Below are positions 3,457-32,018 of a DNA stretch of 64,000 nucleotides, piece after piece. Within the stretch, counting starts at the first letter, position 1, and every line of letters starts with the position of its first letter. Location: the IMG/VR virus record IMGVR_UViG_3300042399_001709, positions 1 through 64,000 of that record; one strand, given 5' to 3'. The notes beneath the pieces were generated by a model. That model was not told where the DNA came from. It searched no databases and was given only the letters and a program-made list of their open reading frames with translations. A program made the translations under genes and the position numbers. The stretch is from a virus.

Positions 3457-3464
3457 TCCTAACC

Positions 3465-3993: not shown

Positions 3994-4238
3994 AGCCCCT
4001 CCTGCTCTGCTACTTCCGTATTATCTGAAATTTCTGCCGCACTGTCAAGTGGCCCGCCACCGCTGCGGAGGATTCGCTCCATACAGGCCCTGTGTACCAC
4101 CGTTCCGGCGGCAAACGATTGCATCTCCCCCAGGGGCATCAGGTTGCCGCGCTTGACGCGAATGTCGTGCTTATTCGGGCAATTCTCGTACGAGCACCCA
4201 AGGTCACCTGGGTACTGCATGTTTGGATTTTTCATCAA
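3990..4238 (-). CDS. Hypothetical Cys/His-containing protein
   Basis: ORF in the operon with C-x4-C and H-x2-C. Confidence 0.55.
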   Translation of the reverse strand: MMKNPNMQYPGDLGCSYENCPNKHDIRVKRGNLMPLGEMQSFAAGTVVHRACMERILRSGGGPLDSAAEISDNTEVAEQEGL

Positions 4239-4512
4239 GGTACTCCCTTAGTACTGGTCGCCACTTCTTGGTCGACTCGGTCTTTACCCTGTGGTGATAC
4301 CCACAAAGCAAGACAAGGTTCTCCATGGTGCTTGGGCCTCGCTTCCCAAGTCCGGCATTGTCAACGTGATCCAGCTCCCAGATGATTCCTTCGCCGGGAC
4401 CAAACTGGCTGCCACAAGCTCCGCCCATGCCAATTTTCGCCCCCACACAAGTGTGGTCGCGCTTCATGACTGCGTAACGGAGTTCCGGGGTTACCGGGTC
4501 TTTATGAGGCAT
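4204..4512 (-). CDS. HNH endonuclease
   Basis: RD..C...C...ELDHV...G.ST.ENLVLLCGYHHRVKT. Confidence 0.88.
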   Translation of the reverse strand: MPHKDPVTPELRYAVMKRDHTCVGAKIGMGGACGSQFGPGEGIIWELDHVDNAGLGKRGPSTMENLVLLCGYHHRVKTESTKKWRPVLREYLDEKSKHAVPR

Positions 4513-8607: not shown

Positions 8608-8755
8608 ACAGAATAATGGGTGGTGTGTGAAATACTGTTGTAGAATATCCATGTATTGTCCGCATGAGGCTTACTTTGGTAAAAAGTAACAATAATCTAT
8701 CGCCTTCGGGTTGTAGTCTTGGCCCAATTTATTGTTCATAGAGATTAATATCTCA

Positions 8756-8784
8756 TTGACGCAAAGATTCCGCGCCATCAGTAT
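8756..8784 (+). promoter_or_regulatory. Candidate sigma70-like promoter of the head operon
   Basis: TTGACG-17 nt-CAGTAT upstream of the GGGAGG RBS. Confidence 0.4.
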
Positions 8785-8809
8785 GGCTCGGTACCCTAGG
8801 GAGGTAAAC

Positions 8810-10606
8810 GTGGATTTTAAGGTTTATACGAATGCCCTGAAAGCATACGAGGCGTCAAACGGCGACCTTTATGTTACCGGGACGACATCTTCGACAATCC
8901 GTGACCTGCATGGCGATGAGATGACACTCAACGCCATTAAGACCATGGCCGATACGGCCAAGCAGAACATGACGATCTTCCTTAACCACAATTACAACGT
9001 ACCGCAAGACCTTTTTGGCTCCGTAAAGGACGCCCGCGTCGTAAAGCGCTTTGACGCCGAGACCAACTCCGAAGTTTACGACCTTGACATTGACGTCTTG
9101 GTGTGCAAAGAAGACGAGAACCCAGAGGCTATGCGCGCCTTTAAGGCTATTAAGCGCGGCGTTAAGCTTGGCTTGTCTATTGGTGCCCGGGTAGACCGTG
9201 TTTCAAAGAAAAAGGACGCCAATACCGGCGACGATACATACGTTATTGATTCTGTCAAGCTTATGGAAGCGTCTGTGGTTGGCATCCCGGCCAATCAGCG
9301 CTCATACCTTCAGAATGCCCTCAAGAGCCTAAAGGCTGCCGAGCAAGCTGGCGAAGTTGTGGTTAACCGCAAGGCCGAAGGCCTATCCACGGGTGATTTT
9401 GTCTCCTGGGGCTCAAGCGGCGGAACGGCTCGGGGGAAAATTACCCGCGTTGTTCGAGACGGCAAGATTAATGTGCCTGGCTCTGAATTTACAATTACGG
9501 GGACCCCAGAGGACCCGGCCGCGCTCATTAGGGTTTACCGAAAGGGCTCTGAGGGCTGGGCTGCAACGGAAACGCTTGTTGGGCACAAATTCTCTACCTT
9601 GCGCAAAATTGAAGCGCTTAAGAGCGCTCTAGATTTTGAGGGCCAGGTTGTTACTGTTTTTGACGATTCTGATGGCGACAGCTCGGATGCCGCCGGGACT
9701 AATAATTCCTTGGAGGAAACTCCTTCAGGAATTGAATCTGCGGCCAACGAGCCGACAGAGATCGACTCCAGCCCAGCAGTTTCGATTGACGCTGTAGAGG
9801 TTGTTGATGAATATGAGCAAAAGGGCGATGTGGATAGTTCCGCTAATTCCTTGCTCGCTGAAGGAGAAACTATCGTGGAAAGTGAAAAGGCCACGCGGGT
9901 CACCGTCACTGTCACGCAGAGCGATGACAAGGATAAGGTTAAGCCCGCACAAGAGAACCAGGCCGAAGAGGCCGATGGCGTGGAGGCTGAGGCCGCCGTT
10001 GCCAAGTCTGATACTGAGCCCGTAGCGGAACCAGTCGTCGAGGAGCCGGCCGTTGAGCCAGCTGTTGACGAGCCTGCCGCTGACGAGCCTGCCGCTGAAG
10101 AGGTCGTTGATCCGGCCATTGAAGTATTGCAGGCCCTTGGGGCTGTCCTTGTTCGTGCAAGCGCCACTGAGCGCGCGCGAATCATTTCTAAGGTCGCTGA
10201 GCTCGCCTCTGATGGCGAGCCTGAGGCTGTGGCTGTGGCTGAAGAGCCAACGCCCGAAGTTACGCCTGAGGTTGCGGCGGAGCCAGTTTTGGCCCCTGCG
10301 GAGCCTGAGGCGGAGGTTGCTGTCGAAGCTCCGGCTTCTGACGAGGTGACCGCTATCGCCAAGTCTGCGCTAGATGCAGCCTTTGCCGCTCAGCGGGAGG
10401 TCGCAGCCGTCAAGGCTCAGTTGACCGAACTGCTTAGCCAGAAGGCCACGGTCGAGGCTGATCTTGCAAAGGCACTTGATGTCGTCGGACGCTTGATGGA
10501 TCTTCCATCCGGCCGCAAGTCGTATTCAGTTGCTTCAAACAATTCCGGGACGAATGCCCCTTGGCTTTCGCCTGTTATCCAGCGCATGCTGGAAAGTGAG
10601 GAGTAA
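8810..10606 (+). CDS. HK97-type prohead protease with a Tudor-like (DUF2945-like) domain and an acidic scaffold region
   Basis: RDLHGDEM, FLNH, GLSIG, LMEASVVGIPAN; GDFVSWGSSGGTARGKI; E/A/P-rich tail ending in a coiled coil; GTG start after GGGAGG. Confidence 0.9.
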   Translation: MDFKVYTNALKAYEASNGDLYVTGTTSSTIRDLHGDEMTLNAIKTMADTAKQNMTIFLNHNYNVPQDLFGSVKDARVVKRFDAETNSEVYDLDIDVLVCKEDENPEAMRAFKAIKRGVKLGLSIGARVDRVSKKKDANTGDDTYVIDSVKLMEASVVGIPANQRSYLQNALKSLKAAEQAGEVVVNRKAEGLSTGDFVSWGSSGGTARGKITRVVRDGKINVPGSEFTITGTPEDPAALIRVYRKGSEGWAATETLVGHKFSTLRKIEALKSALDFEGQVVTVFDDSDGDSSDAAGTNNSLEETPSGIESAANEPTEIDSSPAVSIDAVEVVDEYEQKGDVDSSANSLLAEGETIVESEKATRVTVTVTQSDDKDKVKPAQENQAEEADGVEAEAAVAKSDTEPVAEPVVEEPAVEPAVDEPAADEPAAEEVVDPAIEVLQALGAVLVRASATERARIISKVAELASDGEPEAVAVAEEPTPEVTPEVAAEPVLAPAEPEAEVAVEAPASDEVTAIAKSALDAAFAAQREVAAVKAQLTELLSQKATVEADLAKALDVVGRLMDLPSGRKSYSVASNNSGTNAPWLSPVIQRMLESEE

Positions 10607-10610
10607 AATC

Positions 10611-11837
10611 ATGAGCGAACTTAACGAAAAGTTGCAGGACGTTCAGAAGGGCCTTGATGCCCTTGCTGATGCCCCGCACCTCGTCGGCCGTGCTGCCGAT
10701 GAGTCAATCGACGTAGCCGATGCTTATGCTACGCAGCGCGAGCTTCGCAAGAAGTTCTCGAAGATGAGCCGCGCCGACCTCGGCGAGGCCCTTGACATTC
10801 AGGCTACCCGCGAAGCGGGCAAGCAGGCTTCGTCCGACATTCTTAACCGCCTTGCGGTTGCGAATCCGAACATTGCCAAGCTGCTCGATGCGAGCGGTGG
10901 CGCGGCTCTTATCCGACAGGATCTCGAGCCAATTCTTTACGCCTTGTTCGTAAAGAAGTTCCCATTCTTTGAGCGCATCCGCAAGGAGCCGGCAAACGGC
11001 CTCGTGCACGCGTTCAATCAGCAGTCAGCCTTTGGCGATGCAGTCTTCCAGACGGAGACCGGCACCGTTACGGACGACACGAACACCTATGCACGACAGA
11101 CGACCAACGTGGCCGTTCTGGCGACCCGCCGTGGTATCACCCTGAAGTCGCAGTTTGCGATTACCCAGGGCGGCGCTCCGGGGCAGCAGGGCCTTTCGAC
11201 TGAGCTTGAGGGTGGCGTAACCGCTATCGCCAAGAAGCTTCAGAAGACCCTCTTCCAGGGCAACTCGACGAACACCACCGGTGTGACCACCAACGAGCTC
11301 GGCGCATACGATGCGAACGGGTTTGACGGTCTCCGCAAGCTCCTTGGATCAGCGGCTGGCACTGCCCAGATCGCAACCAAGGGTACTGCTGCTTATCTTA
11401 AGACGATCAACGAGAACGTCGCCAGCATCTTGAATGCCGGTGGCAGCCCCTCAGCGATCCTCTGCTCGCCTACGGACTACGCCGGTCTTGTGAACGAAGT
11501 GACGAACCTTGTTCGTTACAACGCTCCAGGGCAGTCGGGTAACGTAATGGGTCTTACGCTCGGTTCCGTTGTCACGGCCGCTGGGGAGCTTCCGCTCCTT
11601 TCGGTTCCTGGCGACAGCATCGGGAATTATACCGTGAGCTCGGTTGATAGCCGCGACATGTATGTCATCGACGAGTCAGTCTGGTCGATGCCTTACCTTG
11701 GGTCGGACTCGATCACCACGCTGGAGATTCCAGTGGGCGTGAACGGTTCCCTTTCCCGTCTTTACATCATGTACTGCATGTACGGTCTTGCAAACAAGGC
11801 CCCTCAGTTCAATGGAAAGATTCGCGTAGCCGTCTAA
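10611..11837 (+). CDS. Major capsid protein (HK97 fold)
   Basis: Follows the protease; GAALIRQDLE, LFQGN, FDGLRKL, ILCSP; GAGGAG RBS; terminator downstream. Confidence 0.9.
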   Translation: MSELNEKLQDVQKGLDALADAPHLVGRAADESIDVADAYATQRELRKKFSKMSRADLGEALDIQATREAGKQASSDILNRLAVANPNIAKLLDASGGAALIRQDLEPILYALFVKKFPFFERIRKEPANGLVHAFNQQSAFGDAVFQTETGTVTDDTNTYARQTTNVAVLATRRGITLKSQFAITQGGAPGQQGLSTELEGGVTAIAKKLQKTLFQGNSTNTTGVTTNELGAYDANGFDGLRKLLGSAAGTAQIATKGTAAYLKTINENVASILNAGGSPSAILCSPTDYAGLVNEVTNLVRYNAPGQSGNVMGLTLGSVVTAAGELPLLSVPGDSIGNYTVSSVDSRDMYVIDESVWSMPYLGSDSITTLEIPVGVNGSLSRLYIMYCMYGLANKAPQFNGKIRVAV

Positions 11838-12529: not shown

Positions 12530-13462
12530 ATGGCAAGTCTTGTCAAAATAGGCGTCCCGAATATTATATCCGACATCTCGACGTACAACCGCGTAGAAAT
12601 TGGCCGTGCCAATAACGAAACGGATGCTACGTCGAGAACGGGTACTTGGAGCTCCATTGGCTATCAGGCCCTAGTTGCGAACGTTGGAACATACGATTAC
12701 GTCGACAATGACGGCACATCTGTTTCGTGGTATTCCTATCGTTTGAATAACAGCAGCACCGGCGTAAACGGCTCATACTCGACCCCGGCCCCTGGCCGAC
12801 ACTTTGGATACCTTGGCGTCGATGAGTTTCGAGAGTACGAACTGGGAGACCTGACAAACCCAGACGGTACAGAGCTTACCGATAATAAGATTCGTCAGGT
12901 CATTAAGGTTGCTAGCTCGCTTGTTGACTCTTACGTTGGCTATACGTTTGACCACCGAAGCTCAACAGAGAAGCATCGCTGGGACCAGAAAACCCGCAGG
13001 ATTTACCCGGTCCATCGATCTATTATCTCCGTTGAAAACGTAAGGGTGTACGTGAGCGCTCAGCAGTCTGCTGCATTTACAGTTAATGACATTTTCATTA
13101 ACTCTGATCGCGGGTACGTCGAGATTACCTCCCTCGCCAACGTGACCTACTCGCTCTTCCCGGCAATTGTTGCCCTTGGAATGATTGAGCCGGTTGTTGA
13201 AATTACCTATACCCATGGGGCGTCGGTTCCGCCGCAGGACATCAAAGATGCGACAGCCCTTGTCACTGTTGAGCTTTTGGCCCGCGACAGCCTTGCCAAG
13301 CAGGGCCTCCAGGCAATTAGCCGCCTCCGCGTCGGTGAGATGGAAATCTACTCTAACGAGGCTGGCCAGGGTGGCTCACGAGCAAAGAGAGACCCAGCTG
13401 CTGCAATCCCATTGGCAGCAACAATGCTGCTAGATCAATACATCAGGCCGGTTATTAAATGA
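12530..13462 (+). CDS. Head-tail connector/adaptor with N-terminal Fn3-like region
   Basis: IKVASSLVDSYVG, VEITYTHG..VPPQDIKDAT, LLDQY pattern of gp6-like adaptors. Confidence 0.8.
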   Translation: MASLVKIGVPNIISDISTYNRVEIGRANNETDATSRTGTWSSIGYQALVANVGTYDYVDNDGTSVSWYSYRLNNSSTGVNGSYSTPAPGRHFGYLGVDEFREYELGDLTNPDGTELTDNKIRQVIKVASSLVDSYVGYTFDHRSSTEKHRWDQKTRRIYPVHRSIISVENVRVYVSAQQSAAFTVNDIFINSDRGYVEITSLANVTYSLFPAIVALGMIEPVVEITYTHGASVPPQDIKDATALVTVELLARDSLAKQGLQAISRLRVGEMEIYSNEAGQGGSRAKRDPAAAIPLAATMLLDQYIRPVIK

Positions 13463-13783: not shown

Positions 13784-14467
13784 ATGGCAAAAGGTGAAGT
13801 TACTTTTAATATCAAATCGGCAGAAGAAAGTCTAAGGAAAGTTAGGAAGGTTCTCACGGAGTCAACAAAAGAACTAGAGCCTGCATTTGCGGGTGCCGCC
13901 GTCAAGATCGTTACTGATGCGGTATATGGTGGCCCCTCAAGCCTTGCCGGAATGGCCTCCGACCTTGCCCCGGTTGACACTGGCGCATTGGTTGCCGGTC
14001 TTGAGTCTCCAGACTCCAATGAATCCTTTGATAAAGGCAGAACATCGCAAAGCGTGTTCTCTGTTTCCCCTGTGGGCAAACGTGGCGTTCAATATGTTTC
14101 CGTGACATATGGCACAGATCCGACGGACAAGGACGGAATGCCTTACGCTGAAGCAGCTCCTGGCGACTTTCTTTCTGCTCCAGCAGCAAAATTTCGCGGC
14201 CAAATGCAATCCATCGGCAACGAAATCTCTCGATCTATTGCGGCTATTATTGCATCAAACCTAAAAGTTGCCACGGCTAAGGGCGGCGGCTACGTTCCAG
14301 CCAAAACAAAGCTAAGCACCTGGGGCGTAGTAAAGCTTATAGAAAAGTTTGGGACCGCGCCCATTGAATCAGCCAGTGGCCGTGGCTACGGCTACCGAAA
14401 ACTTGCATCAATGTCGCGGTCCCGGTACCGGCGCATTATGAGCCAGCGACGCTCCCGGCTTAAGTAA
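13784..14467 (+). CDS. HK97 gp10-like neck/tail completion protein
   Basis: APVDTGAL motif, PYAE; Arg-rich C-terminal extension. Confidence 0.7.
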   Translation: MAKGEVTFNIKSAEESLRKVRKVLTESTKELEPAFAGAAVKIVTDAVYGGPSSLAGMASDLAPVDTGALVAGLESPDSNESFDKGRTSQSVFSVSPVGKRGVQYVSVTYGTDPTDKDGMPYAEAAPGDFLSAPAAKFRGQMQSIGNEISRSIAAIIASNLKVATAKGGGYVPAKTKLSTWGVVKLIEKFGTAPIESASGRGYGYRKLASMSRSRYRRIMSQRRSRLK

Positions 14468-15728
14468 GTCGAATCAAATACTCAGCGGTCACGCCGTCCT
14501 TGTGCTGGAATAGCAGCCACTGGCACGGCTCTCCGGCAGAAGCAAGCAGCTCCTGAGCGTAGGTGTTTGAGCTCTCGGTCGAGCCACCGCTCCAGTGGGT
14601 AATCCCATTGAGGTACATGCGTGTCGGGGTGTGGAAGTGGCCAGCTGCGCTGTAATCAAACGGCGCCACGGTCATGTTCCATCCCTGAAGCTTCTTGCCA
14701 AAGCCGTACCAGGGGAAGCCGGCAAATCCGCCGGAGACCTGATCCCCGTGGAACAGGAACCAAGTCTTTCCCTTGACTTCGTCGGTTGCAAACCAGGCGC
14801 GCTCGCCCTTGGCAAGAGTTTCAACCCACTCAACGTTCTTCTGCTCCTTTACGAGCATTGATGCAATCCGGTACATCATCGCGTCAGCGTTTGATTCCGG
14901 ATGGAACGTTCCCTTTCGGCCAAGTCGTCCGTGGTTGCCAATGACCCCAACAACCTTGACATGCTCAAAAGAGCCAGCAAGCTTGCGAATCAAGTCGGCA
15001 AGGATTTCTCCGCCGTGGAATACCTGGTTGTACAGGGACGCATCAACCAAGTGAGCCTGCCCAGGGAAAATATCTTCCCCCTCAATCAGGTCTCCAAGGA
15101 GGTATACGCGAACTTCCTTGACCGGGTGTGCCTTCCGCTGGATTTCAACCAGCTTCTGCACCTTCTCTGCCAACTGCGCAATGCGTTCTGCGCAGACTTC
15201 AGAATTGTAGGTTGGGGTAATCTTGCCAAGCTGCCAATCGGACAAAAGCAACACAGCAACCTCATCTTCGGCCTTTCGGGTGTCCGCCTTTGGCGGAGTA
15301 ACCGGCTTAAGATTCATTGCCGCCGCTGCTTCGTGTGCGGCTTGGTACACCGCCTGAATCAGCTCCTGCTTTGCAAGGTCCCTGTCGTCGAGCTTTCGCA
15401 GCGCCTTGCGATGGGCTGCCTTAAGGCGCTCAATCTCCGAAGTTGCCTCGTAGGCGGTTACTTCTCGTTCGGCAATTGAGCTAATGATATCAATGTTCTT
15501 TGACATTGTCACCCTTTCTCGCAGCGTTCCCGGGATTACGCTTGGCTTGCGGCCGTTTGTGATCCTGCGATCAATAAACGTACGCTGACCATTTAGCAAT
15601 CGGCCCCGCTGGAGGCTGTAGGAATTAAACGTTCGATCTGGGTAGATCGCAACGAACTCCTCATACTCAAGACGGACTGCGTCTTGCTTCTCTTGGGATG
15701 TCCAGTTTCGATATGAAGATGTAGCCAC
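14460..15728 (-). CDS. Calcineurin-like metallophosphoesterase with N-terminal extension
   Basis: LSDWQLG, LGDLIEG, GNHGR, FHGD, GHFH. Confidence 0.88.
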   Translation of the reverse strand: MATSSYRNWTSQEKQDAVRLEYEEFVAIYPDRTFNSYSLQRGRLLNGQRTFIDRRITNGRKPSVIPGTLRERVTMSKNIDIISSIAEREVTAYEATSEIERLKAAHRKALRKLDDRDLAKQELIQAVYQAAHEAAAAMNLKPVTPPKADTRKAEDEVAVLLLSDWQLGKITPTYNSEVCAERIAQLAEKVQKLVEIQRKAHPVKEVRVYLLGDLIEGEDIFPGQAHLVDASLYNQVFHGGEILADLIRKLAGSFEHVKVVGVIGNHGRLGRKGTFHPESNADAMMYRIASMLVKEQKNVEWVETLAKGERAWFATDEVKGKTWFLFHGDQVSGGFAGFPWYGFGKKLQGWNMTVAPFDYSAAGHFHTPTRMYLNGITHWSGGSTESSNTYAQELLASAGEPCQWLLFQHKDGVTAEYLIRLT

Positions 15729-18051: not shown

Positions 18052-18345
18052 ATGGCAACCCTTAATCAAGTACGCCCAACGCGCGTACTCACCCTCAACG
18101 ACCTCGCGGACATTGAGGATAAGTTTGGAGGCCTTGACAAGGTCGACCTTACCAAGTTCACTGTACTTCGTTATATCCTTTGGCTTGTCCTTCGCAAGGA
18201 TGACAACAAGATGGATGAGCGCGCGGTAGGTGACAAGTTCTCGCTCGATACAATGCGTGACGAAATCGACAAGGTGCTTCGCTCAAGCGGTCTCATCGGC
18301 AACGATGAGGGTGGCGTTTCCGAGGGAAAAGCTCCGGAGGCGTAA
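18052..18345 (+). CDS. Tail assembly chaperone (gpG-like)
   Basis: Between tail tube and tape measure genes; ends near the slippery site G GGA AAA. Confidence 0.82.
   Translation: MATLNQVRPTRVLTLNDLADIEDKFGGLDKVDLTKFTVLRYILWLVLRKDDNKMDERAVGDKFSLDTMRDEIDKVLRSSGLIGNDEGGVSEGKAPEA
18324..18330 (+). other. -1 programmed ribosomal frameshift site GGGAAAA
   Basis: X XXY YYZ heptamer in the correct phase; the -1 frame is open and continuous with 18375..18608. Confidence 0.85.
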
Positions 18346-18608
18346 GCTGGGGGGAGATCGACTGGGGGTCGATCATGGCTTCTTATGCAGATGCCTTTGG
18401 TTATACCCCAGCCGAGTTCATGCAACTTACGCTTCCACAACTTAATGCATACGCAAAGTATGTTGAGAAGCGTGATGAAGCGATGAAGGGCGAAACCAAA
18501 AACACCTCCGGTAAAAATAAGGCGAAATTCGCCGATGGTTCTTCAGGGATGAAAACAGTTGGGTCTCTGGAGCAAATGATTTCGGTCTTCGGAAAGCCGG
18601 GGGCCTAG
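18324..18608 (+). CDS. Frameshift extension of the tail assembly chaperone (gpT-like)
   Basis: -1 frame reads SSGGVSWGEIDWGSIMASYADAFGYTPAEFMQLTLPQL. Confidence 0.8.
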   Translation, partial: GKSSGGVSWGEIDWGSIMASYADAFGYTPAEFMQLTLPQLNAYAKYVEKRDEAMKGETKNTSGKNKAKFADGSSGMKTVGSLEQMISVFGKPGA

Positions 18609-18623: not shown

Positions 18624-21600
18624 GTGGCCGAGATTGATAATGTAGCACGGGTTGGCATATCGCTTGACTCTGCCGCATTCCAGGACGGTGTAGCCCGTAC
18701 GCTCCGCGACATTGACAGGCTTCTCAGCGGCCTTAAGGCCTTGCAGTCTGCGAACAAGCAAATCTCCCTTGCGTCTGGCGGCCTACTCGGCAGCGGATCG
18801 AAGTCCCCCGTTGCCGGATTTGCAAAAGACATTACTCGCACGGCGATACCGGCTCTGCGCGACATGGAACGCAATGCGATCCGTGTCGGCGGGGCCGTTC
18901 GTCGTTCTATGGAGGAAATGTCCCGACTAGCCGCAGCTTCGGAGCGTGTCCAGCGCCAAGCTCAGCGAGTCTCCTCCCCATCCTCCTCAGGCATAGTTCA
19001 AGACGCCAGGATTCGCCGTGGCCAAGAGGCAAGCCTACGAGCCTTGATGGCAAAGGCCGAGCGCCAGGGGTTCCGCATTGAAAAGACCAATGGCGGACAC
19101 TTTGCTGCCTACCCGCCAGACAAGTCTAAGCAGATAGTCTTCTTCCCATCTACCGGAGGCGACCGCAGAAACGTTCAGAACATACGCTCGCAGCTGCGTC
19201 GATCTGGGTATGTTGATGACGTGGAGAGCGATAGGCCTGCCCGAGCACCTAAGCGTGCCGCAACACCAACGCCAGTCCCAACCCAAAGCTTTGTTGACCC
19301 GCGCAGCACTAGTGGAAAAATAGAGGCAAGGTATGTTGTTCGGGCACTTGAGGAGCTTGTTACTTCACGATCCAGCGAATACCCACAGTATCTCCAGCCA
19401 CGTGCCCGTGGTGGCGCTGGCCGAGCTGAAAGCGTTGCCTCTCGCCAGCTCATTGAGGAGATCTCCGGTCGATTTGACCCAACGCAGATTTTCTTTAAAG
19501 GCCCAAACCTTGCAGAGGGAATTGTTGCAACCGTTCGATCTGAGGCAGCTAAGGCTGCATTGGTTCTTTCTGGCAATGCCCGTACGCTTGGCATGCAGCA
19601 ACTTGCTTCCACCCCGGCAGGTCAGAAGCAAATCAATAAAGCAGTTGCGGAGTTTATCACCGCTAACCCGGAGGCACTTGGCGGTACGGCTGGCGTAGCA
19701 AGAGCCCTTAAAGAAGCTTTAAAGATCAAAGAGTCTGGCAGGACTCCAGTTATAACGCGAGAGCTTGTAACAAGCCTTGAAGGCCTTGGCCCACGCGAGG
19801 GCGCACGCCTTGGCCACATGCTTAACACTGGTACCGGCATGACCGAAGCAGAAACGGCGCAGGCGATTGCTAGGACTATCGCGCGTATCCCTGGCGGCTT
19901 TGAGCGCGGAAACGTTGGCGCCACAATTCGCAAAGGTGGACCAGCCGTTGAGGAGCTAAAGAAGCTCGTTCTTGCCGAGCTTCCAACGTCGGAGATACGT
20001 GCAAAATACCAAACCAAGAAGGGGGAAACCTCTAGCCCAGCGATAAATACGCTCATGGAGAGGGTGCTGCTCTCTACGGCATTTGGCAACAACGCCGCAA
20101 CCGAAAGTATGATTGGCAAGATTCTGGAAGGTGAGCGCGGCGGCATTCCAGCGCCGCTACTAAGAGAACTTCACAAGGCGGTTGGGCCACAGCTGCAACT
20201 TCGAGGCAGGATTGGGGCTGGAGAGATCCCAGCCGGAATGGACCCGATTTACAATGCGCTCCCAGAGGCAATTGAGCTGATCAATGCTGCCCAGGCGGTG
20301 GCCGGGGGCGCAAAGAGGATGGGAAAGGTTGCTGGCAATCTTGCAGAAGCTAGAAAACTTATTTCCGCGCAAACAGCTGCCTTTGGAGAGCCGTCCGCCC
20401 AAGGCGTTGAGCTTGCCTCAAGCATTCTTGCAGCTGGCCGGGGCCTTCCTGCATTCTTTGCCGGCCTTTCTACCTATGGCGGACGCGCAACGTCTGCAAC
20501 CCAAGGCGGCATGGGGCTTGACCCAAGCGCAATCACAGCAGACCCACGTGTCGCATTGCAGATTGCACAAGAGGCAGCCGCCACCATGCTTGCCGGACTC
20601 AAGTCCGGCTCGAGCAAGGGCGCTAAGGGCGTTGAGCGTCTTATCCAAGAGGCCGTTGAGGGCGCAATCCAGGCTTCTGCAGCCCGAGACCCTGGATATC
20701 TTGGCTCAGCGCCTCCAGCTTCTAGCGGCGGCGGCGGATCTGGCGGAGGGAAAAAGCCACCGCGCAGTAGCAGGGGAAATATGGAAGACCCTCCAGAGGA
20801 GGAGCCAGAAGAGCCTATTGCAATGCGCCGCCCAGAAAGCTCGCGCGCCTATCGCCTTAATGAGCGAGCCGTCGGCACTGCTCGCGGCTCAGCAAAGGCC
20901 CGAGCAGGCGGATATCTTCCATATGAAGAGTCTAGCCCCGCCCGCCAGGCGCAGCTAAATACAAACCTAACCCGGGGATATTTAAAGCTTACCGAGGGTC
21001 TTATCAGGGTTTCTGAGCAGGGAAGCCATCCCTTGGGGGCAACGCATATTGAGGGCATGCTTAAAGAGCTTAATAACGCATACTCCCTTATGGGCTCTCG
21101 CGGGCTGCAGGTTCCAGAACTTTCCCAACACATGGCGATTGTCAGCAGCGTTCTAAAGAAACTTGGGATTGATCCTGAAACTGTTCCAAATTCAGTTTCT
21201 GGCGCGGCCATACCAGGGTCGGCTGCCGTCACAACAGCCGCCACAACGGCGGCCACAACGGCGGCCACAACGGCGGCCACAACGGCGGCCACAACGTCGG
21301 CAACATCCGCTGCGACCACCGCTGCAAATCAAGTAGCGACAGCAACGGCTGCCACAACGGCTGCTGCAATTGTTGCCAAAACACCTGCAATGCAGCGCTT
21401 TGAGCGCCTTATGCTCGGTCGTAGCGTCGCCATTGGGCCGCGCACCGCCAACACAAAGTTTATGACAGAGGCCGTTGAAGGCGTACTGCCAGGTATCACC
21501 GAGGCGTTTAAGCCCTTCCTGGAAAAGAACTTTGCATCTCAGATTTTGCAACACTTTAAGGCGTCGTTCCGTGGGCTACCTGGCGAGAGTGAAGGTTTGC

Positions 21601-24600
21601 AGGGGCAGACAAGCACCGGAGCATCTTCCGGGTTCCTGGAGATTGGGAACCTAAACCGAGGCTCGGGAGCCATTCTTCGTACTGCAATCCATGAAATTGC
21701 GCACGGTGCATTTGAGCGGATGAGAGAAGGTGGTTATCAAACGCCGGCCACGACAATGCATTACGGGCCAAAGGGAGAAAAACTTGGAGAAAAGAGCCCG
21801 GCGACAATTCTTGCTGCTGAAGGTGGCAGAGGAATTAGCCATGCTGACCCAATGTTCTACCAACTCCAGGCAGAGATTTCAAAAAGAACCGGTGGCCTCC
21901 TTGCCAATCTTGCATTCCACCAATATGCCCAATCGCGGCCGCAAGGCTTCAATACCCCCGGGCTTGGCGTTGGCATTGCCGCAGCGCAACTCACACCACA
22001 TCTTCAAGAGCTAGCATTTAAAACTAAGCCCTCGCTTGTCTCCGCCTCAACCCTCTTTACTGAGTTTGCTACCAAGATTCATGAAACCGCAGCAAAGGTG
22101 CAGGGTGGTGGGGCTCCAATCCAAGAGCTGCTTGCCCAAGTTTCGGCAGGAATTGGAGAGCTTGGCAAGTCTTCCAAGATGTTCCCAAAGACCTCGTTCC
22201 TTGAGATTGCTTCTATCCTTTCTGAAACCATCCGATCATACGGAGAGGGCGGCATTCGGTCTGGGGCTGCCAAGCAATTCCAGGGCCTTAACATGCCGTT
22301 TGAACAGGCCCTGCAGCGTGCGTTTATCCAGGCTACCGGCTCGCTGCTCAAGCCAGGAAGCGAGCTTCGTGGCATAACTGGTATCTCCAATCGAACACCG
22401 GAAATGATGGCCGCGTTCATGGCCAACGCATCAGAGGCCGAGAAGCAGGCTGTTGCCATGGCCATCAACCCAGAAGCATTTGAAAAGATTATCAAGGGGC
22501 AAAAGCCCGGAGTAGCCGCAGATGATCCCGGGGTTCAGCAGCAGCTCAACGAGCTTACAAAGACCATCCTTCAGGCTACCGTTTCACAGATCAATGCCGA
22601 AATTGCCCAAAGTGGCGCGCTAGTACAGAAGGGCAGTCTCGTTGGCATGCCACTGCCAATAACCCGCCGTGGCGGTTTCTTGCCTGCCGGTGCCTACCCA
22701 AATGAATCTGGCCCTCAGTTCCGCCTGCCAGGCGGTGAGCCTGTGTACAACATTCCACCTGGAGGTTCACTTGTGCCGCTCAGCGGCCAACCTATTGATT
22801 TTGTTGAGAGGGCTCGCCAAGAAGCCGAGGCTCGTGCGGCCCGAATGCGAACTGCATCAGCGTACGGGCGCAGTATATTCGAGCGTTTTATCCCAGGTGT
22901 TGGGCAATACCGAGAGGCCCAAATAGAGTACGGCGGCCAGGCATTACGCTCTGCAGAAACCAAGCAGCAAGCGGTTGCGGAGTTCCAAAATAATGCCAAG
23001 GCGGCAGAGGCAGCCAGAGCCGCCAACAGCCGACTTAATCTTGTCATCCAAGATGGTCGCGTTCAATTTGGTCAGCTAGCAAATGTTTTGACCCAGGCAA
23101 ATACCGGATTGACACAATCCGTAACCGGCGTTCTTTCGCTTGGTCTTTCGTTTGCCATTGGCCAGCAGGCAATCTTTGCCTTTGCCGGCGGAATCCAACA
23201 CCTCATGGGCGGCATCATTGGCTTTAACGCCATGCTTGAGTCCGCCGGAGTTGGATTTAATACACTTTTCAAGAATGCAGGACGCAGCGTAAGGGAAGCA
23301 CAGCGGGAAACAGAATCAACAATTCAAACCCTTAAAGACTTTGCCAACGTCACAAACTTCAGGTTCGGTGACCTTGAGGTTGCAGCCGTCCGCATGCAAG
23401 CATTCGGCTTCGAGGTTGACTCAGTCAAGGCAAAAGCGCAAGGGCAAATGCCGATTCTTGAGGCATTTACAAATCCATACTCAACAAACGGTCTTAAGGA
23501 GTTCCGTGGAGCGCTTGTAAACATTGGAGATGCCGTTGCGGCACTCGGTGCCGAAGACGATAAGCTCCGCCGAGTAACGTACGCACTCGGACAAATGAAC
23601 TCTGCTGGACGCGTCTATCAAAACGACATGATGCAGCTGGCAAACGCTGGTATCGCCGGATATGAAATTCTTGCTAACGCTTTGCTTGCGGAGCTTGAGC
23701 GAACTGGGCAAACCGCTAGCGCAACATACAAGAAACTGCTAAACCCACAGTCCGCCATCGAAGAAATCCGCCGCCTTGCTCGCATCGGCGCCCTTTCCGG
23801 CCCCGGCGGCGTTCAGGCGATCCTGCAGGGGTTGGAGGCAAAATACGGCGGTGGAATGAAGGCATTCTCCAGAACCTTCCAAGGAGCAATGACCACGGTT
23901 GCGGATACGTCCCAGTCGCTTGTTGCAACAGCGTTTAATCCACTGTTCTCGGTTATGCGAGACCTTCTTGCTGGAACAAAGGCTCAAGAGTTTAACGACG
24001 GCCTTGCAACATTCCTCCAGGGCGAAGAGGCAATAAAAGCATCTCAACTATTCGCACGTTCAGTTAAAACTGTTGCGGAGGCAATCCGATCTGGCCTCCC
24101 AGAGGGGCTTAGTGTCGCCGGCGGCTTTATGGATGCCGTGCTTAAGACACTTGGGGGCATCGGCGGCGCAGTAACGGCCAGCGGGGGTCCTCTAAACGCA
24201 TTTATTACCTCCTCGGTTTCTGGATTTAAGGCAATGGCCGAGATCCTCTCTAATGATGTTATCCGCAAGCTTGGCGCATCGATTATTGTTGCCAGGGCCC
24301 TGTTTGGATTTATCAGTAGCAACCCGCTTGTAGCAACTCTTGGAGCCAGCACGGCCCTTGTTGGGTTCCTTGCTAACGCCTATGAAAATAACCAGTACGG
24401 CGTTCGCTCTGCTTTTGACCGAGCTGCCCCGGGCATCCTTAGCTCAGCGGATTCAATCGCCAATTCGGTAATCCCAGGAGTCTCATCAGCCGCAGCCGCA
24501 TCAATCGGGACGCTTGCCGCTACAATTGCCTCGGCACTTTCCACCGCAATGCCAGTCATTGACGGAATCTTGGCCCTCTTTGCTGGGATAATGAAGGTTA

Positions 24601-27600
24601 TTGAGCCTCTTGCTCCGCTCTTTGGTGTGCTCTTTGCTGGATTCGTCGGCGGAAAACTTCTGGTTGATGGCCTTGCCCTTGCAATGACAAAGTTTGCAAG
24701 CGCTACTGCCAGGTCCGCAGAAAAAATGGAAAAACTCAAAATCAGCATGTTTGCATTCAAGGCCCTTGGTGCCGTAGAAAGCTATGGCCTGGAGCGTCTT
24801 GTTCCTATCCAAAGGCAAGACCAAGACGGGAACCTTGTCGCATCTGGATTCGGCGTTGACGATACGCCGGGAAAAACCATCACATCTCCGGCGCTTGTGC
24901 GCGCCATTGCATTCATAGAAGCCCTGGGGGCCTCTAAGGGTGGTCGAGAATTTATTGCGCCATCCGGCGGGGTAGATTCAGTTCTCAATACTGGCGTTGA
25001 CATAGATTACGCAGCTCAACGATTGGCGGAACTAAAGAAATACAGCATAGACGACCCAAAGGGATACAATGACTTCCTGGACAGCGTAGGCGCTAGCGAG
25101 CGCGCGCAAATTGAGCAAGCACTTGCCGCAGGACTAGAAAGCGTTACCAACAGAGTTAGGGGTTTTGGAGAAAGACTTTCCGCAGCAAGCGGAAAGCTCG
25201 CTAAGCTCGGCATTATTATTGATGCAGTTAAGTCTCGCATGGGCATGCTGGGCGGAATCCTAAGCGGTTTGGGCATGTTCGGCAGCATTGCCTCTAACCT
25301 TCTCGGTCTTGACGAGAGCATTTCTACTGTCTTTAACAATATGATGATGGTTGGAATAGCAATAGAGTCCTTGCACGGCGCTTTCATTGCTCTTACTGCA
25401 GCCACAAACGCGCAGATCGCAGCGCTTACCTTTGGTATTGCTGGTGCGGTCATGGCGTTGGCCTTCCTTACTGGAGAGCTTTCAAAGGCAGCGCAAGCGG
25501 CATTTAACAGTAACCCAATTAACACAAGGGCAAAAGTTGTTACCGACACAAGGACCCGCCTTGAGGGCCAGGTTGGAAAAGACAAGGCAAAGGAGATGTT
25601 CCCGGAGCTCTATGCCGAAGAGCGCGGAGTCCTTGATGACCTTGAAACGTGGTTCAGGCGCACAGTTGCCCTCATGGGAGCAAACGCTGACCCTCAGGGC
25701 GCTGCTGCCAGATACGACACGCAACTTAACAGAGAATTGGTTGCGGACAACGATCCATCACGAGCTCAGCAATGGCTCCGAGACAACCCTGCGTGGTCCA
25801 TGTCCACAACTGGCATTATGGGCCAACTGGAACAAGTGCAGCAAGACAAGATCAAGCAAATGCTTCGAGAGGGGTTCTCGCCTGACGAAGTAGCAAAAAC
25901 TATGAACTTGGATCAGGCATATGTTGAAGAGCTCTATGCAAAGTGGTATGGCGCTGGCGATGCCGAGGCAACAAAGTACATCAGCCTGCTTACCAAAGCC
26001 CTAGACGCCACCGGAGAGCTCCTGCAGCAGGCGCAAGAGGCAATGCAGAAGGCAATGGAAGCCTTCCAGACACCGCTCAATCGCCTCATGTCCCGAGCAC
26101 AAGTCGCCATCCAGGCACTGTTTGAAGAAGAAAAGAAGCAGCTCGAAAACGAGCGAATGAATGCTCTTGCAAACGTAGAGGTTCTCTACAACGGTGAAAT
26201 GATCCGCCTTGGCGTCCTTGAGCAGCAGTACGAGGCGTTGCAAGAGCAAGCAAAGCAGATGGAAAAGCTGCAGCAGCTTGAAGAGTCTAGGACCAAGGCA
26301 TCAGAGGCCGCCCTTGACATGTTTGATGCTAGCGTTGATCCGCTGGAGCGCGCCCGCGCCGCGCGAGACGCCGCACGTGAGCTATTCAAAGATGAGCAGC
26401 GCGCACGTCTTGACTCAATGGGGGCCGCCATCCAGTCCGGCAAGACCAGCTCTGCATACGTTGGGACTACCCAATTCTACGACGAGAAGGCCAGGGCGCT
26501 TGAGCTCGATCAGGCAGAGCGCAGCCGCGTCATGCAGGAGCGCATTGACGACCTGCTTAAGAAGATCCAGGAAGGAAAGATCAGCAAGTCCAAGGCATCT
26601 ACCGAGCTTAAGGACATCTTTGGCGACGTTGGCCTTGACCTAGAGGTTGCTTCTGCCCAAGGTTACTCCTTCATGGAATCGTTCTCCTCTGGCTTCATGG
26701 CTGCGTTGCAGGCAAACATTAACTCGACCTTTGCCGCCCTTCCTAAGGCCATTACTGCCGCCCTAAACGTCCTGTCGCAATCTGCTGCGTACAAGAAGGC
26801 ACAAGACGCGCTGAACGCCATCATGAACCCAGACTCGGAAACAAGAACCATCAAGGGTCAGACCATGGTGGACTTGCTTAAGGCACGTATTTCTGATGCT
26901 AAGAACCTTCAAACAAAGCTCCGCGAATACTATGCCCTGGTTAAGCCAGAGGTTGGCGGAAACGACCCAGAGCGGGTAAAGCGCTTTAACCAAATTGGCC
27001 AATTCCTTGCGCAGCTCGAGCGCATGCAGAATGTCTATACCCCGGGCGGCAAGTACACGAGCGGCCAATACGACGATTTGAATACTGGGTTTATGGAGCA
27101 GTTCCAGACCCTCCTTCAAATGGTTATGGCTGGTCTCTCTGGCTATAACCCAGACAGGAATAGGGCTATGGGCGGGTCCCTCTCAAGCGCCACCAGCTAT
27201 ATGGTTGGCGAGCGCGGACCAGAGATGCTTACCATGTTCCAGCGTGGTGGTGGGTACGTCACCCCGAACCACAAGCTCCCACCGGCCCTTAAGTCGTCCG
27301 CTGGCGCCTTGCGAGCCGGCACATACGGACGCGCGGTTGGTGGCTATGTTGGATGGGGCAAAGGCATCATGCCTCAAGACAGCACCGGAGATCCAACGCC
27401 AGGACCAACGCCGGAGCCATCATGGGAGCCAACCCCGACACCAACACCGACGCCAACTCCTACCGGAACGCCATCCCCGACCCCGACACCAACACCCGGT
27501 CCAACGCCAACAACCGGCGGCGATCCGTGGGGGCTGTTCCCGTTTAATTTTAGGATGTATACCAAGTGGATCAACTCGGTCATTCCACTTGGCGGCATTG

Positions 27601-30600
27601 GTCGAATCTACGGCGGACCAAATGGCGAGTTCACTGGCTATAACAGGGGCACAACGACTCCGTTTGAGGAAGATGACGCCTTTGCCGTAGTCAAGCGCCC
27701 AAGCTGGTGGGACCGATTTAAGAACGATATTGGCGTTCGGAAGATTGCCCCATTCAATTGGGAGGGTCCTGGAAATATTAAAACATGGTCGCCGAAGAGC
27801 GGCTTTGTTCCGGGCATAAAGGTTGAAGGCCCTGATGGAAAGATAAAACTTAAGCCTGGCAACGCTATAAGTAAGAGCGCCGCAAACGTTATGGCCCAGG
27901 CGTTTAGGGGTACCGCCATCCTCAGTACAGGCATGAGTTTCTTTGACATTTTGGGCGCTAGCGAGCGCGGAGAGTCTCCAGCTCGTGCCTGGGTGCGCAA
28001 TATTGCCATGAATGTTGGCGCACTTGCCATGGCAGTTCCAAATGTTGCAGGAGTAGTAGCCAGCGGCGGAATGGCAACCGCAGGAATGTTTGCTGCAAAT
28101 GCGGCGGTTGCCACTGCCCTAGACGCGATTTCTGGCAGTGTCTATGACCTCCTCTTTGGCAACGTCTGGGATGGAAAGCAAACACAGCAGTCTATTGATA
28201 TGGGCCAAGAGAGGTCTTTGGGCTTCTTTGGCGACATCTTTAATTACAATAAGGGCTTCAACCCTGCTCCGAAGCCAAGTCTAACACCAGGAAACGAGCT
28301 TCTGAATTTGCCAAGCCCAACCGCAATGCCAAAGATTCGCTTTGGTGGCGGTCGAGCTGATGGCGGACCGGTTGACGTTGGCCGTGGTTACGACGGTAGG
28401 ATCACGTACCTTGAGGAATATACCGACCCGGCCACTAGATTTATCCATCAGGTTCTTCAGGGCGGCCAAAGCAACAGCAACCTAGCTCGTTTTGACTTTA
28501 TTGAAACTTTAAGCGCGCTTTATGGGGCTGGCTTGAAAACCATTATGCCTGGGCCAGATCTTGCTGACGCGTTGGCCAGGCTTGCTGGCTCTGGAAAACT
28601 TCCAGGGCCGCTTGCGGCATTTGCAAGCGACATGTTTGGGCTGTCTCAGCTTTCTAACGTCACAGCAAAAATGGGCTTGCGAGATACCTACGAGCTTGAC
28701 CCTGGCCTTGATATTGTCAAGCGTGGAATCTGGGGCCGGGGAAGCAGGCCGTTGTCCACTAGCGTTGTGCGCTCGGTTGCTGGTGGCCTTGCAGGTGATT
28801 ATGAGCACCTAGGGGGCATCCTAAGCCAACAACGCGGAAACTCATCTGGAGATGCAACAGGCTTGATGAGCATGGGCGGGGCAGGGGCTCCTATCTCCCT
28901 GGTCACCCGGGCTGGGTATAAGCCGCCCAATGTCACCACTTCATTCAATGACTTCCTGTCCGGCGATTATCACTTCCCATACTTTGCAACTGATCCGGAT
29001 TCATTCCCCGACGGAAAGCGCGGCCTAAGCCTTTCCGGAACGCTTCCACAGGGCGGAGCGGGGGCAAGCAGGCTTTCAGAGTTCCAAATTCCTGGCGGCA
29101 TTCCAATTGATCAGATTGAGGCAATTTTTGGCCTAAACACCATGGTCGAAGAAGAGACTGTCCTCAGCAAACCAATTGGCAGGGAGACAACAGGTATCTT
29201 CCGCCGACCAATGAATGACGCCGAGTTTAAGGCTCGAGCAGCCTTGCTTGCCGAAATGGGCTTTACTGACCTTGGAAATCACGCTGTTGCTACCGACGTC
29301 CTTAACCAACAAATTGCCGAGTGGAGAAGCTCAACCAGCGCAGATGCAGTTGACCCGGAGACCCTTGCAAAAGCAAAAGCGGAGCTTATTCGCCAGAAAG
29401 AAATGGGCCGAATCATTGGCACAGAAGATGGCTCAGTAAACCGACACGCGCAAGCAAACTCCCTCCTCCGCGCAGGGGTGTTCACAAGCATTGACGAGGC
29501 CGCGCTCTACGCTGCCACCGCTGATCAGCACTTTAAGAGGGTAGCCGCTAGAAAGGTTGATGCCGAGGCCCAGCGAAGAAGTGCTGCCAGAACAGTTCCG
29601 AGGAACCTCTCATTTGACGAGAAGCTTGCACAAATCCGCGAACAACTCCTCTTTACGCAGCCAGAACTCTTCCCTGAACTTGGGCCCGTAGACGCCCCAG
29701 CGCTCAAAATGCTACTGGATGATGCGCCGGCAATTCCAAAGGCTGTGGGTGAGCAGCTTGACCTTTTCAAATTAAAGTCGGGTAGCGGATTTGACGTGGA
29801 GGATATTGAAGGGGGTCGACGTGATTCTGTTCGGATGAGGCCGGGCGAAGGTTTGCGTGGCCGCCCAGTTCGAACCGGAACAATCTTAAGGCAACCATCA
29901 ACATTCCTTGGAAAGATTTTACACAATCTAGGAGTTTTTGGTAACGCAGGCAGTACAGAGGTTGAGAACCTTGGAGCCGGCCCAAGGCGCGTGGCAATGG
30001 GCAAAGATTTCCCTGGATACCTAGCAGATACTATTAGTTTTGACTGGGGAGATCTGCGAATACCACATGATTATATGGATTATGCAGACATGGGCTCCAT
30101 TGATGCAATATCCAGCTCTGCTCGTCTAGCGTTGGCCGCCGCACCATTTGGCATGTTTGACCCTTCTGATCCAAGCAAGCGCCTACTGATTGATATCGTA
30201 GATCAAATCGGTGGAGAACCTTTTGCGGGAAGGGTTACCCGCTCAGATAGCAATTATGTACAGTTGCGTAGGAGCGATCTAAAAGGCGGCGCGCCGGAAA
30301 CACTTATTCATGAGATTGGTCATCTTATGCATAATAAAGCATTTGGCCCTCTTAAAGTCCTACGCTCTCTTGTTGATCCCGAAGCTCGTAACCTTTTTTC
30401 TTCAAAATATAAAAAAGTGCTGGGCATTTATGAACATAAGAAAAATCCAGATTACGATGATCAGGGAAGGCCAAGGCATCACCCGGATTATAATCCTAAG
30501 CCATACACGATTAAAGACACATTGTTTGGTCATGTAAGTGCCCTAAAATACGCTTTCTATGAAACTCAAAACCATTTGCAGAATGCGCAACTTATTCGAG

Positions 30601-32018: not shown

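Follow-up and report, generated by a model that had tools for sequence, protein, structure and literature searches.

Enzyme-bearing tape measure proteins (TMPs), polyvalent proteins and TMP-derived effectors of contractile injection systems (CIS) are each known. The TMP of phage T5, pb2, is described as undergoing cleavage at a site that separates a hydrophobic stretch from a muralytic metallopeptidase motif. When the receptor is bound, the fragment pb2C is expelled to the periplasm and the hydrophobic segment inserts in the membrane, and the C-terminal residues of the protein sit in the tail tip (bioRxiv 10.1101/2022.09.20.507954). DdrB of phage P1 is a polyvalent protein that joins a ParB domain to a C-terminal metallopeptidase and is present in the head in a processed form (PMC5512222). 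The TMP of TM4 has an embedded enzymatic motif that aids infection (PMC1796659), and the Sle1-type, TMP-related effectors of actinobacterial CIS carry an exchangeable functional domain of diverse kinds (PMC13277306). The window analyzed here is the first 64 kb (64,000 nucleotides) of the 80,783-bp IMG/VR virus record IMGVR_UViG_3300042399_001709 (CheckV completeness 92%). Its subject is a giant open reading frame (ORF) whose 4464-residue product is, judging by family matches and gene order, a TMP in which a conserved core is flanked on both sides by large blocks that vary among relatives.

Like the TMP of TM4, the window protein has an enzymatic motif embedded in a tape measure sequence; in TM4, however, this is described as one small motif within the ruler, whereas the window protein carries multi-domain blocks outside a core of conserved length (PMC1796659). 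It also resembles the Sle1-type effectors in being a modular carrier derived from a TMP with exchangeable domains, a likeness by description only, and differs from them in that they are cargo of bacterial phage-tail-like particles and not the TMP of an infectious phage (PMC13277306). What is new in the window protein is the combination, the scale and the two-slot modular layout; the undescribed system proposed in the earlier note is an overstatement, the enzyme-bearing TMPs and the polyvalent proteins taken separately being already known. No literature joining polyvalent or DdrB modules to a TMP was found, and the supplementary architecture lists of PMC5512222 might hold such fusions. The term 'tape measure' has 0 occurrences in the main text of PMC5512222 (Iyer et al., 2017), and portions of PMC5512222, PMC7824862 and PMC11318856 do not link polyvalent proteins with tape measures. 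Two database records (P0003 and P0004) are already labelled with PF18763 and PF20155 together.

Tape measure identity and family architecture

The frame runs for 4464 codons from a GTG without a stop and is uninterrupted across 13.4 kb. Two IMG/VR contigs from other datasets encode proteins of 4370 aa (L002) and 4455 aa (L003) that are colinear with aa 1-4464 at 82% and 79% identity, respectively, and a further fragment (P0002) is 80% identical across aa 1745-4464. The ORF is a real, intact gene of an uncultured long-tailed phage. An assembly fusion, which the earlier note had named among the findings that would count against its reading, was dismissed because L002 and L003 each align with the window protein in one piece over aa 1-4464.

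Matches to tape measure families cluster in the center of the protein. Pfam TMP_3 matches aa 1625-1768 with an E-value of 1e-7 (32.3 bits, below the 41-bit cut-off), TIGR02675 matches aa 1634-1686 (19.8 bits, below the 21.35-bit cut-off), and phrog_1686, a tape measure family, matches aa 1621-2643 (E 2.4e-11), with additional matches from phrog_12798, phrog_9959 and phrog_1538; a PHROG tape measure match is also found at aa 4369-4457. TMP_3 was recovered in 8 of 12 relatives (best E 3.7e-12). Beyond TIGR02675 the NCBIfam models gave only a low-complexity SslE match on a Pro/Thr-rich linker. Hydropathy marks two hydrophobic segments in the core, at aa 1961-2021 and 2263-2286. Head genes lie upstream of the ORF, large tail or fiber ORFs downstream, and a pair of G- and GT-like chaperone frames adjoins it. 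An overlapping G/GT chaperone pair is the usual layout ahead of a tape measure gene, and a frameshift would join the 97-aa G-like ORF to the overlapping -1 frame. On the strength of the family matches, the adjoining chaperone pair and the surrounding head and tail genes, we identify the product as a phage tail TMP, in agreement with the earlier note.

A word-indexed search returned 15 large relatives of 2658-5227 aa, and a scan of IMG/VR with aa 1501-2900 returned 74 loci, for each of which the longest plus-strand frame was taken and near-duplicates were kept. Complete ORFs were present at 44 of the 74 loci and ranged from 1537 to 5597 aa, with 14 below 2000 aa, five of 2000-3000 aa, 12 of 3000-4000 aa and 13 of at least 4000 aa. 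Across the complete ORFs the core motif Y[QE]N[DE]M lies anywhere between 259 and 3148 aa from the ORF start. The distance from this motif to the first GE.G[PR]E is 1013-1791 aa, with a median of 1230 aa (32 ORFs with both motifs). BLASTP of the window protein against the 74 frames matched 73 of them, and coverage, counted per stretch, is far from even. It amounts to 8-9 loci over aa 1-1400 (13 at aa 151-200), 68-72 of the 73 matched loci over aa 1501-2000, 33-39 over aa 2451-2700, only two over aa 2951-3800, about eight over aa 3801-3900, about ten over aa 4201-4350 and 24-33 over the last 100 aa.

The two ends of the protein are conserved in their own right. A hidden Markov model (HMM) of the N-terminal cap, built from the N-termini of eight giant relatives, matched 12 further ORFs at residues 1-125 or 7-129 with E-values of 1e-37 to 1e-50. 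These include members of the L011/L016 clade, in which the sequence behind the cap is unrelated and twice as long; plain TMPs were not matched by this HMM. At the other end the motif YMVGERGPE is present twice, at aa 2862 and 4386, and the single C-terminal motif of a plain relative of 1537 aa (L029) aligns with both copies. Two such motifs occur in 12 of the 44 complete ORFs, where they enclose 494-1523 aa, with an HExxH between them in eight of the 12; the last GE.GPE lies 72-91 aa before the C-terminus in 29 of the 32 complete ORFs that have the motif. Taken together, the coverage counts, the motif distances, the N-cap HMM and the duplicated C-terminal motif show, at the level of sequence comparison, a common chassis: an N-cap, a variable N-terminal block (N-cargo, aa 120-1400), the core (aa 1450-2900), a C-terminal motif, a variable C-terminal block (C-cargo, aa 2930-4370), and a C-terminal motif with a C-cap (the last ~80-100 aa). 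The exchange of cargo around a constant core, which the earlier note suggested looking for in related TMPs, is seen among the 74 loci, where the core is kept and the flanking blocks change.

As judged by Pfam, most of the cargo in the giant relatives carries no annotation: a search of 20 half-proteins from ten other giants recovered only TMP_3 (11 of 20), PI3_PI4_kinase (two) and SHOCT (one). The kinase match in a 5498-aa relative (L016:995-9421) lies in the N-cargo at aa 689-734 (34.4 bits against a 27.1-bit cut-off, E 2.8e-8); it is also seen in one other half-protein of alignment A7, and this kinase-like cargo is not present in the window protein. Two further relatives, L058 (aa ~1748) and L047 (aa ~1112), have HE.GH followed ~45 aa later by Y/..E..AE.Y, in each case within the N-cargo. 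One type of zincin seems, from these motif positions, able to occupy either the N- or the C-terminal slot.

Two compositional features run through the family. Cysteine makes up 0.52% of the residues encoded by 18 other ORFs of the window, whereas not one of the 4464 residues of the TMP is a cysteine (P about 7e-11). The family as a whole has 28 cysteines in 228,652 residues, and 65 of the 74 frames are free of them; such an absence would suit a protein that travels unfolded. The motif G[RK]AxGG occurs at aa 2902, 3243 and 4370 (nt ~27327, 28350 and 31731), which are module borders. Three copies were reached in none of 2000 shuffles, and one or two copies are found after the first C-terminal motif in several relatives. 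Candidate roles for this motif are a joint left by recombination and a site of cleavage.

The N- and C-terminal cargo blocks

The N-cargo was modelled with AlphaFold as a 1200-residue block from a nine-row alignment, with a mean predicted local distance difference test score (pLDDT) of 52.8. Directly behind the N-cap lies a small domain for which the HicA_toxin model (PF07927) scores 14 bits, with E 0.056 across Pfam, and misses its 27-bit cut-off; within the genome the score is 13.7 bits (E 0.0055), the sole match there. The model of this region has an alpha-beta-beta-beta-alpha order (helix 123-147, strands 151-154, 160-163 and 172-174, helix 181-193) at pLDDT 69-77. Foldseek aligns it to HicA (6g26_F) with a probability of 0.98, a TM of 0.65 and a root-mean-square deviation (rmsd) of 3.0 over 58 columns, and VIA to 5yrz_D (Z 6.3, rmsd 2.4 over 57 residues) and 1whz_A (Z 6.5). 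A HicA-like fold, placed by the earlier note at aa ~138-196, is therefore supported by the model at aa ~129-196. The domain is present in four of nine aligned proteins, all four of which keep a G-H pair (GGH or SGH) whose His is a candidate for the catalytic histidine of HicA toxins. It is cleanly absent from the other five and behaves, in these alignments, as a mobile insert.

The DdrB-type ParB model (PF18763; cut-off 27.6 bits) scores 19.4 bits on the whole window protein, 24.6 bits when given only the segment and 35.8 bits on an aligned homologue of 39% identity (P0003); it was matched in seven of 12 relatives with a best E-value of 7.6e-10. The residues Q258, P259, R260 and R262 (QPR.R) and G317, N318 and R320 (SGN.R) are invariant in all nine aligned sequences, and a conserved active-site arginine is described for the ParB/Srx superfamily (PMC5512222). 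Most of aa 233-690 is modelled at pLDDT 64-88. Among PDB entries, Foldseek places ParB-N, Noc and KorB chains first for this region (E 0.13-0.4, probability 0.47-0.77), and VIA gives 5k5d_B with Z 6.5 and an rmsd of 7.9 over 210 residues. The five best BFVD matches to aa 1-1200 are annotated as 'DdrB-like domain-containing' (E 2e-25 to 3e-8), and the next is a 'large polyvalent protein associated domain' protein. The DdrB-type ParB domain that the earlier note had placed at aa ~230-420 is confirmed by the matches in relatives and by the BFVD neighbors, and a ParB/Srx fold is suggested by the PDB comparisons. The VIA matches to the N-terminal model are chiefly generic helical ones with Z below 8.

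Further along the N-cargo, the HEIAH that the earlier note read as a zincin is a conserved motif in a region modelled at pLDDT <45. All nine aligned sequences share H1023, E1024, H1027, D1075, P1076, F1078 and Q1082, and the three motif residues H, E and H are invariant in 10 of 10 when the distant clade is included. A profile of ten sequences (A6) against PDB returned one irrelevant match (E 0.48), and a search of the ESM Atlas with aa 940-1210 gave no lead above 0.82. The region is probably a metallopeptidase, to judge by the invariant motif, and its family is not assignable; the motif claimed by the earlier note stands, and the zincin fold could not be assigned.

The N-cargo is a DdrB-like polyvalent module in which the DdrB-type ParB domain is accompanied by a HicA-like fold, by helical domains and by an invariant HExxH. 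Disparate domains (ParB, HicA-like, gluzincin and a second HExxH) are joined in one ORF of a structural gene module, which is what characterizes polyvalent proteins, and P1 DdrB likewise unites a DdrB-type ParB and a metallopeptidase with other, unrelated domains in a single chain whose gene lies among those of the virion. P1 has no similarity to the window protein at the level of BLAST. Unlike the window module, which is part of a tape measure, the polyvalent proteins described in PMC5512222 are packaged in the head or fused to portal or MuF proteins.

The C-cargo model (ten-row alignment, 1200-residue block, mean pLDDT 40.8) is informative only around the second HExxH. The segment that follows the Pro/Thr-rich linker, at aa ~2965-3175, is common to L002 and L003 only, and hydrophobic Gly-rich stretches are located at aa 3127-3145 and 4249-4313. 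The low-complexity linkers and hydrophobic Gly-rich helices mentioned in the earlier note are present; besides the Pro/Thr-rich linker they include a Gly/acidic linker at aa ~695-745 and an Ala/Thr-rich one at aa ~860-915. The same note's description of the flanks as globular applies to aa 130-195, 233-690, 740-850 and ~3794-4170, and the remainder is modelled at low confidence. Searches of both flanks against PDB sequences with phmmer gave chance-level matches only (E at least 0.05), and aa 2990-4189 searched against 1.84 billion representatives matched six proteins, all of them relatives or their fragments.

A module of ~400 aa within the C-cargo is strongly conserved, with 85 invariant positions in seven sequences at 32-74% identity. 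The residues R3272, H3275, S3378, D3392, Y3393, E3486 (followed by FQIPGG) and E3499 are kept in all seven. Because so many positions are invariant, the alignment suggests an enzyme or a binding site. Pfam returned no family for aa 3260-3660 at E-values up to 5, and a profile of the module (A8; aa 3240-3680, seven homologues) against PDB gave two irrelevant matches only. The earlier note had called aa 3378-3495 an ADP-ribosyltransferase (ART) from an STS...E pattern. ART motifs take the form R-S-E or H-Y-E, with the catalytic Glu in Q/E-x-E; here the candidate Glu, E3486, stands in E-F-Q, and the candidate R-S-E spacings are about 106 and 108 aa. The STS triad varies among homologues (PLSTS, PLSVG, PLSTG, PLSAS and PLSMS), the ART-PolyVal model PF18760 matches nothing in the genome at E-values up to 10, and aa 3378-3527 are modelled mostly as coil at pLDDT <50. 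Of the four ESM Atlas clusters that lie nearest and carry a Pfam label, three are of ART type (PARP/DarT, ART-PolyVal and OspC), at values of 0.80-0.82 that are often due to chance. With the STS unconserved and no family model or PDB profile matching, the ART call as made for aa 3378-3495 was rejected, and an ART identity of the module is not supported.

By contrast with ART, the second zincin of the earlier note (aa ~3896-4053) is borne out. HE.GH is invariant in all eight family members, and a downstream block Y..G....E.[FY][AG][ED] was recognized by eye in all eight, with the first Glu shifted by one position in L007; the residue that we take to be the third zinc ligand is assigned from lethal factor. 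A profile of the eight sequences against PDB gave seven matches, of which six are to lethal factor (E 0.046-0.18), Zmp1 (1.2) or an ATLF-like protein (2.0), all weak. The model of this region, at pLDDT 50-73, retrieves zincins in all top rows of Foldseek (probability up to 1.0, E 0.085). In VIA, 74 of 411 chains reach Z of at least 8, the best being M1 aminopeptidases, M30 lugdulysin and M9 collagenase; the Z-score is 11.7 for ERAP2 (5ab2_B, rmsd 2.4 over 118 residues) and 11.4 for lugdulysin (7bb8_A). A word-indexed search with a profile of this zincin (A5) found one protein only, a close relative. Like the lethal-factor and Zmp1 gluzincins, the window protein combines HExxH with a downstream Y-x-G-x-T/N...E-x-F/Y-A-E/D. 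Unlike them, it has weak profile E-values (0.046-2), no match to the Pfam ATLF model, and M1, M30 and M9 enzymes as its nearest structures. The structural model confirms a gluzincin fold with a lethal-factor-like motif, for which catalysis is predicted.

The C-cargo is composed of hydrophobic helices, the conserved 400-aa module, the gluzincin with its lethal-factor-like motif and a glycine zipper; glycine zippers are described in the C-terminal region of TMPs (PMC10240207). The order of hydrophobic helices, gluzincin, glycine zipper and C-cap in the window protein parallels the hydrophobic stretch, metallopeptidase motif and tip residues of T5 pb2 as described (bioRxiv 10.1101/2022.09.20.507954). 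Because this order equals that of the distal part of pb2, at a larger scale, we read the C-cargo as probably envelope-directed. The window protein differs from pb2 in that its distal block comprises ~1400 aa, includes at least one further conserved module and is bracketed by the duplicated C-terminal motif, and in having a 1300-aa N-terminal cargo block that is no part of pb2 as described (bioRxiv 10.1101/2022.09.20.507954). The 'toxin' label that the earlier note gave to these domains is too strong in view of the C-terminal muralytic metallopeptidase of pb2 (bioRxiv 10.1101/2022.09.20.507954). Since the pb2 metallopeptidase motif is muralytic and is released into the periplasm, a role of the C-terminal zincin in envelope penetration would be at least as likely as a toxin role.

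Feature coordinates and genomic setting

The features of the TMP and of the surrounding genes are collected in the table.

Table 1. Coordinates of the tape measure ORF, its modules and neighboring genes in the 64,000-nucleotide window.
Feature	Residues (aa)	Nucleotides	Strand	Evidence or remark
Portal		5775-7946	-	phrog_2662, 8.4e-48, aa 26-414
Prohead protease		8732-10606		
SU10-type major capsid protein		10530-11837		
Head-tail adaptor		12530-13462		
Tail assembly chaperone, G-like, 97 aa		18052..18345	+	phrog_2115 'tail protein', E 3e-5; directly upstream of TMP
GT-like extension, overlapping -1 frame, 99 codons stop to stop		18309..18608	+	stop-to-stop ORF list; ends 16 nt before TMP start
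Tape measure protein ORF	4464 aa	18624..32018	+	GTG start
N-terminal cap, helical	1-120	18624..18983	+	local HMM and BLASTP
HicA-like domain	~129-196	19008..19211	+	phrog_2089 (function unknown), E 2.4e-10
DdrB-type ParB with helical domain	231-343 (ParB), to ~690 (helical)	19314..20693	+	PF18763
Helical bundle	~740-850	20841..21173	+	pLDDT 65-85; only generic helical matches, Z 6-7.4
First HExxH region, putative zincin	~940-1200	21441..22223	+	HEIAH at 1023-1027
Conserved TMP core	~1450-2900	22971..27323	+	TMP_3, phrog_1686, TIGR02675
First TMP C-terminal motif copy (..YMVGERGPE..PNHK)	~2846-2885	27159..27278	+	
Pro/Thr-rich linker	~2920-2965	27381..27518	+	sequence, composition
Trp-rich segment and hydrophobic Ala/Gly-rich helices	~2965-3175	27516..28148	+	pLDDT <40
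Conserved ~400-aa module ('ART' region)	~3240-3660	28341..29603	+	
Gluzincin metallopeptidase (predicted)	~3794-4170	30003..31133	+	HEIGH at 3896; Y-S-G-T-N-x-x-E-H-F-A-E-I-F near 4040-4053
Glycine-zipper-like hydrophobic region	~4200-4330	31221..31613	+	hydropathy, 19-24% Gly
Second C-terminal motif copy and C-cap	~4366-4464	31719..32018	+	phrog_1538, phrog_30701
1790-aa ORF		32022-37394	+	directly downstream of TMP

The 1790-aa ORF had zero Pfam or PHROG matches and is, from its position, presumably a tail tip or central fiber protein; a downstream ORF of 996 aa ends in a Peptidase_S74 chaperone domain. No sheath gene was recognized in the part of the ORFs that was scanned. The portal has a C-terminal extension with matches to PHROGs of polynucleotide-kinase/phosphatase type at aa 474-600 (7e-11) and to phrog_2859 at aa 618-721 (1e-17), and by these matches looks like a second virion protein fused to enzyme-like domains. 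An exonuclease gene (14460-15728, minus strand; phrog_284, 1.4e-49) is placed amid the head-tail structural genes, in opposite orientation. Among 50,697 records of GenBank phages there was no match to the TMP by megablast of the ORF or by tblastn of aa 1-1400 and 2901-4464.

Proposed delivery of the cargo and alternative readings

The reading that we favor, and hold to be probable, is that of a TMP on a two-slot chassis with a delivered, envelope-directed C-cargo and a DNA-side N-cargo. Copies of the protein would occupy the tail tube, the C-cap lodged in the tip as described for T5, and upon receptor binding the protein would be expelled C-terminal end first. Peptidase activity and membrane insertion would then let the C-cargo work in the envelope, in the manner of pb2C. 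The proximal end of a TMP faces the head. The N-cargo would lie beside the DNA end, leave last and enter with the genome; like head-packaged P1 DdrB, it may bind DNA, shield it or target nucleic acids of the host. The most economical guess for its role would be protection or handling of the incoming genome or, by way of the HicA-like fold, an effect on the nucleic acids of the host. We infer the delivery, the ejection and the enzymatic activity of the cargo from this comparison with described systems. The self-processing, and the action before phage transcription, that the earlier note proposed are conjectural. A bolder extension, which we put forward as a tentative idea and think doubtful, is that the chassis is a two-ended, programmable delivery device. 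C-slot cargo would go first to the envelope or periplasm and N-slot cargo last with the DNA, ParB, HicA-like, kinase-like and zincin blocks would be swapped to match host defenses, and the avoidance of cysteine would be a signature of unfolded transit.

A number of observations weigh against delivery. Confidence is below pLDDT 50 over the larger part of both cargo blocks, whose models were built from shallow alignments with 9-10 rows. The window's own ParB and HicA HMM scores fall under the curated cut-offs, the first HExxH region has no assignable fold by PDB profile or ESM Atlas, and the second zincin gives no match to Pfam ATLF (PF07737) at E-values up to 10. Folded domains as large as these should not fit three-fold in the lumen of a tail tube, which would require that the cargo be unfolded, removed by cleavage or kept in another place. 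No prophage relative was found in one genome each of 185,579 prokaryote species, scanned with the single protein and then with alignment A1. Finally, the embedded motif of TM4 counts as ruler, a deletion of 114 aa giving tails ~20 nm shorter (PMC1796659), so the cargo might merely lengthen the tail.

This last point leads to the proposal that the whole polypeptide sets tail length, which at 0.15 nm per residue would imply tails of ~0.23-0.84 µm in the family and of ~0.67 µm for the 4464-aa protein, with the domains as tolerated, extended insertions, some of which might refold like the mt3 motif of TM4 and aid penetration. The proportional shortening of the tail on deletion of mt3 (PMC1796659) speaks for it, as do the largely helical prediction for the N-flank and the spread of family lengths over 1537-5597 aa rather than in two classes. 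We nevertheless consider it unlikely, given that the distance from core motif to first C-terminal motif holds steady at 1013-1791 aa while the flanks vary 12-fold, and that a ruler would not be expected to contain beta-bearing folds such as HicA, ParB and zincin, linkers rich in Pro/Thr or Gly, or hydrophobic helices; a ruler function of the whole chain is in any case compatible with delivery and not strictly exclusive of it. Less likely again, in our estimate, is that the domains serve the virion alone, the zincins as maturation or assembly proteases and the rest as trimmed scaffold, so that only an ordinary TMP enters the cell. The TMPs of T5 and lambda are described as proteolytically processed during tail morphogenesis (bioRxiv 10.1101/2022.09.20.507954), Iyer et al. 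propose that metallopeptidase domains in polyvalent proteins act autoproteolytically (PMC5512222), and the three G[RK]AxGG copies at aa 2902, 3243 and 4370 could be cleavage sites. ParB and HicA-like nucleic-acid domains, however, have no obvious role in assembly, and in T5 the cleaved enzymatic fragment is described as staying in the tail and then being expelled (bioRxiv 10.1101/2022.09.20.507954). Relatives, moreover, exchange their cargo and keep caps and core, as would be expected if diversifying pressure acted on functions directed at the host. That the ORF is a chimeric assembly, or that read-through has fused two or three neighboring genes, could be argued from the extreme length and from the C-terminal motif copies at aa 2862 and 4386, which might resemble two gene ends. 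Set against the colinear ORFs of L002 and L003, the 80% identity of P0002 over aa 1745-4464, the 25 of 44 complete relatives that exceed 3000 aa and the 13.4 kb without a stop, an artefact of this kind is very improbable.

If the cargo of this TMP is delivered as we propose, the tail lumen would constitute a protein route beside that of the head-packaged polyvalent proteins, with a periplasm-first slot and a DNA-side slot. The family is at the same time a natural experiment on TMP length against tail length, since its members extend from 1537 to 5597 aa around a near-constant core. The unannotated cargo modules, with six matches among 1.84 billion representatives, are nearly private to the clade, and very long metagenomic 'tape measure' genes should be taken to encode proteins of many domains and not just rulers.

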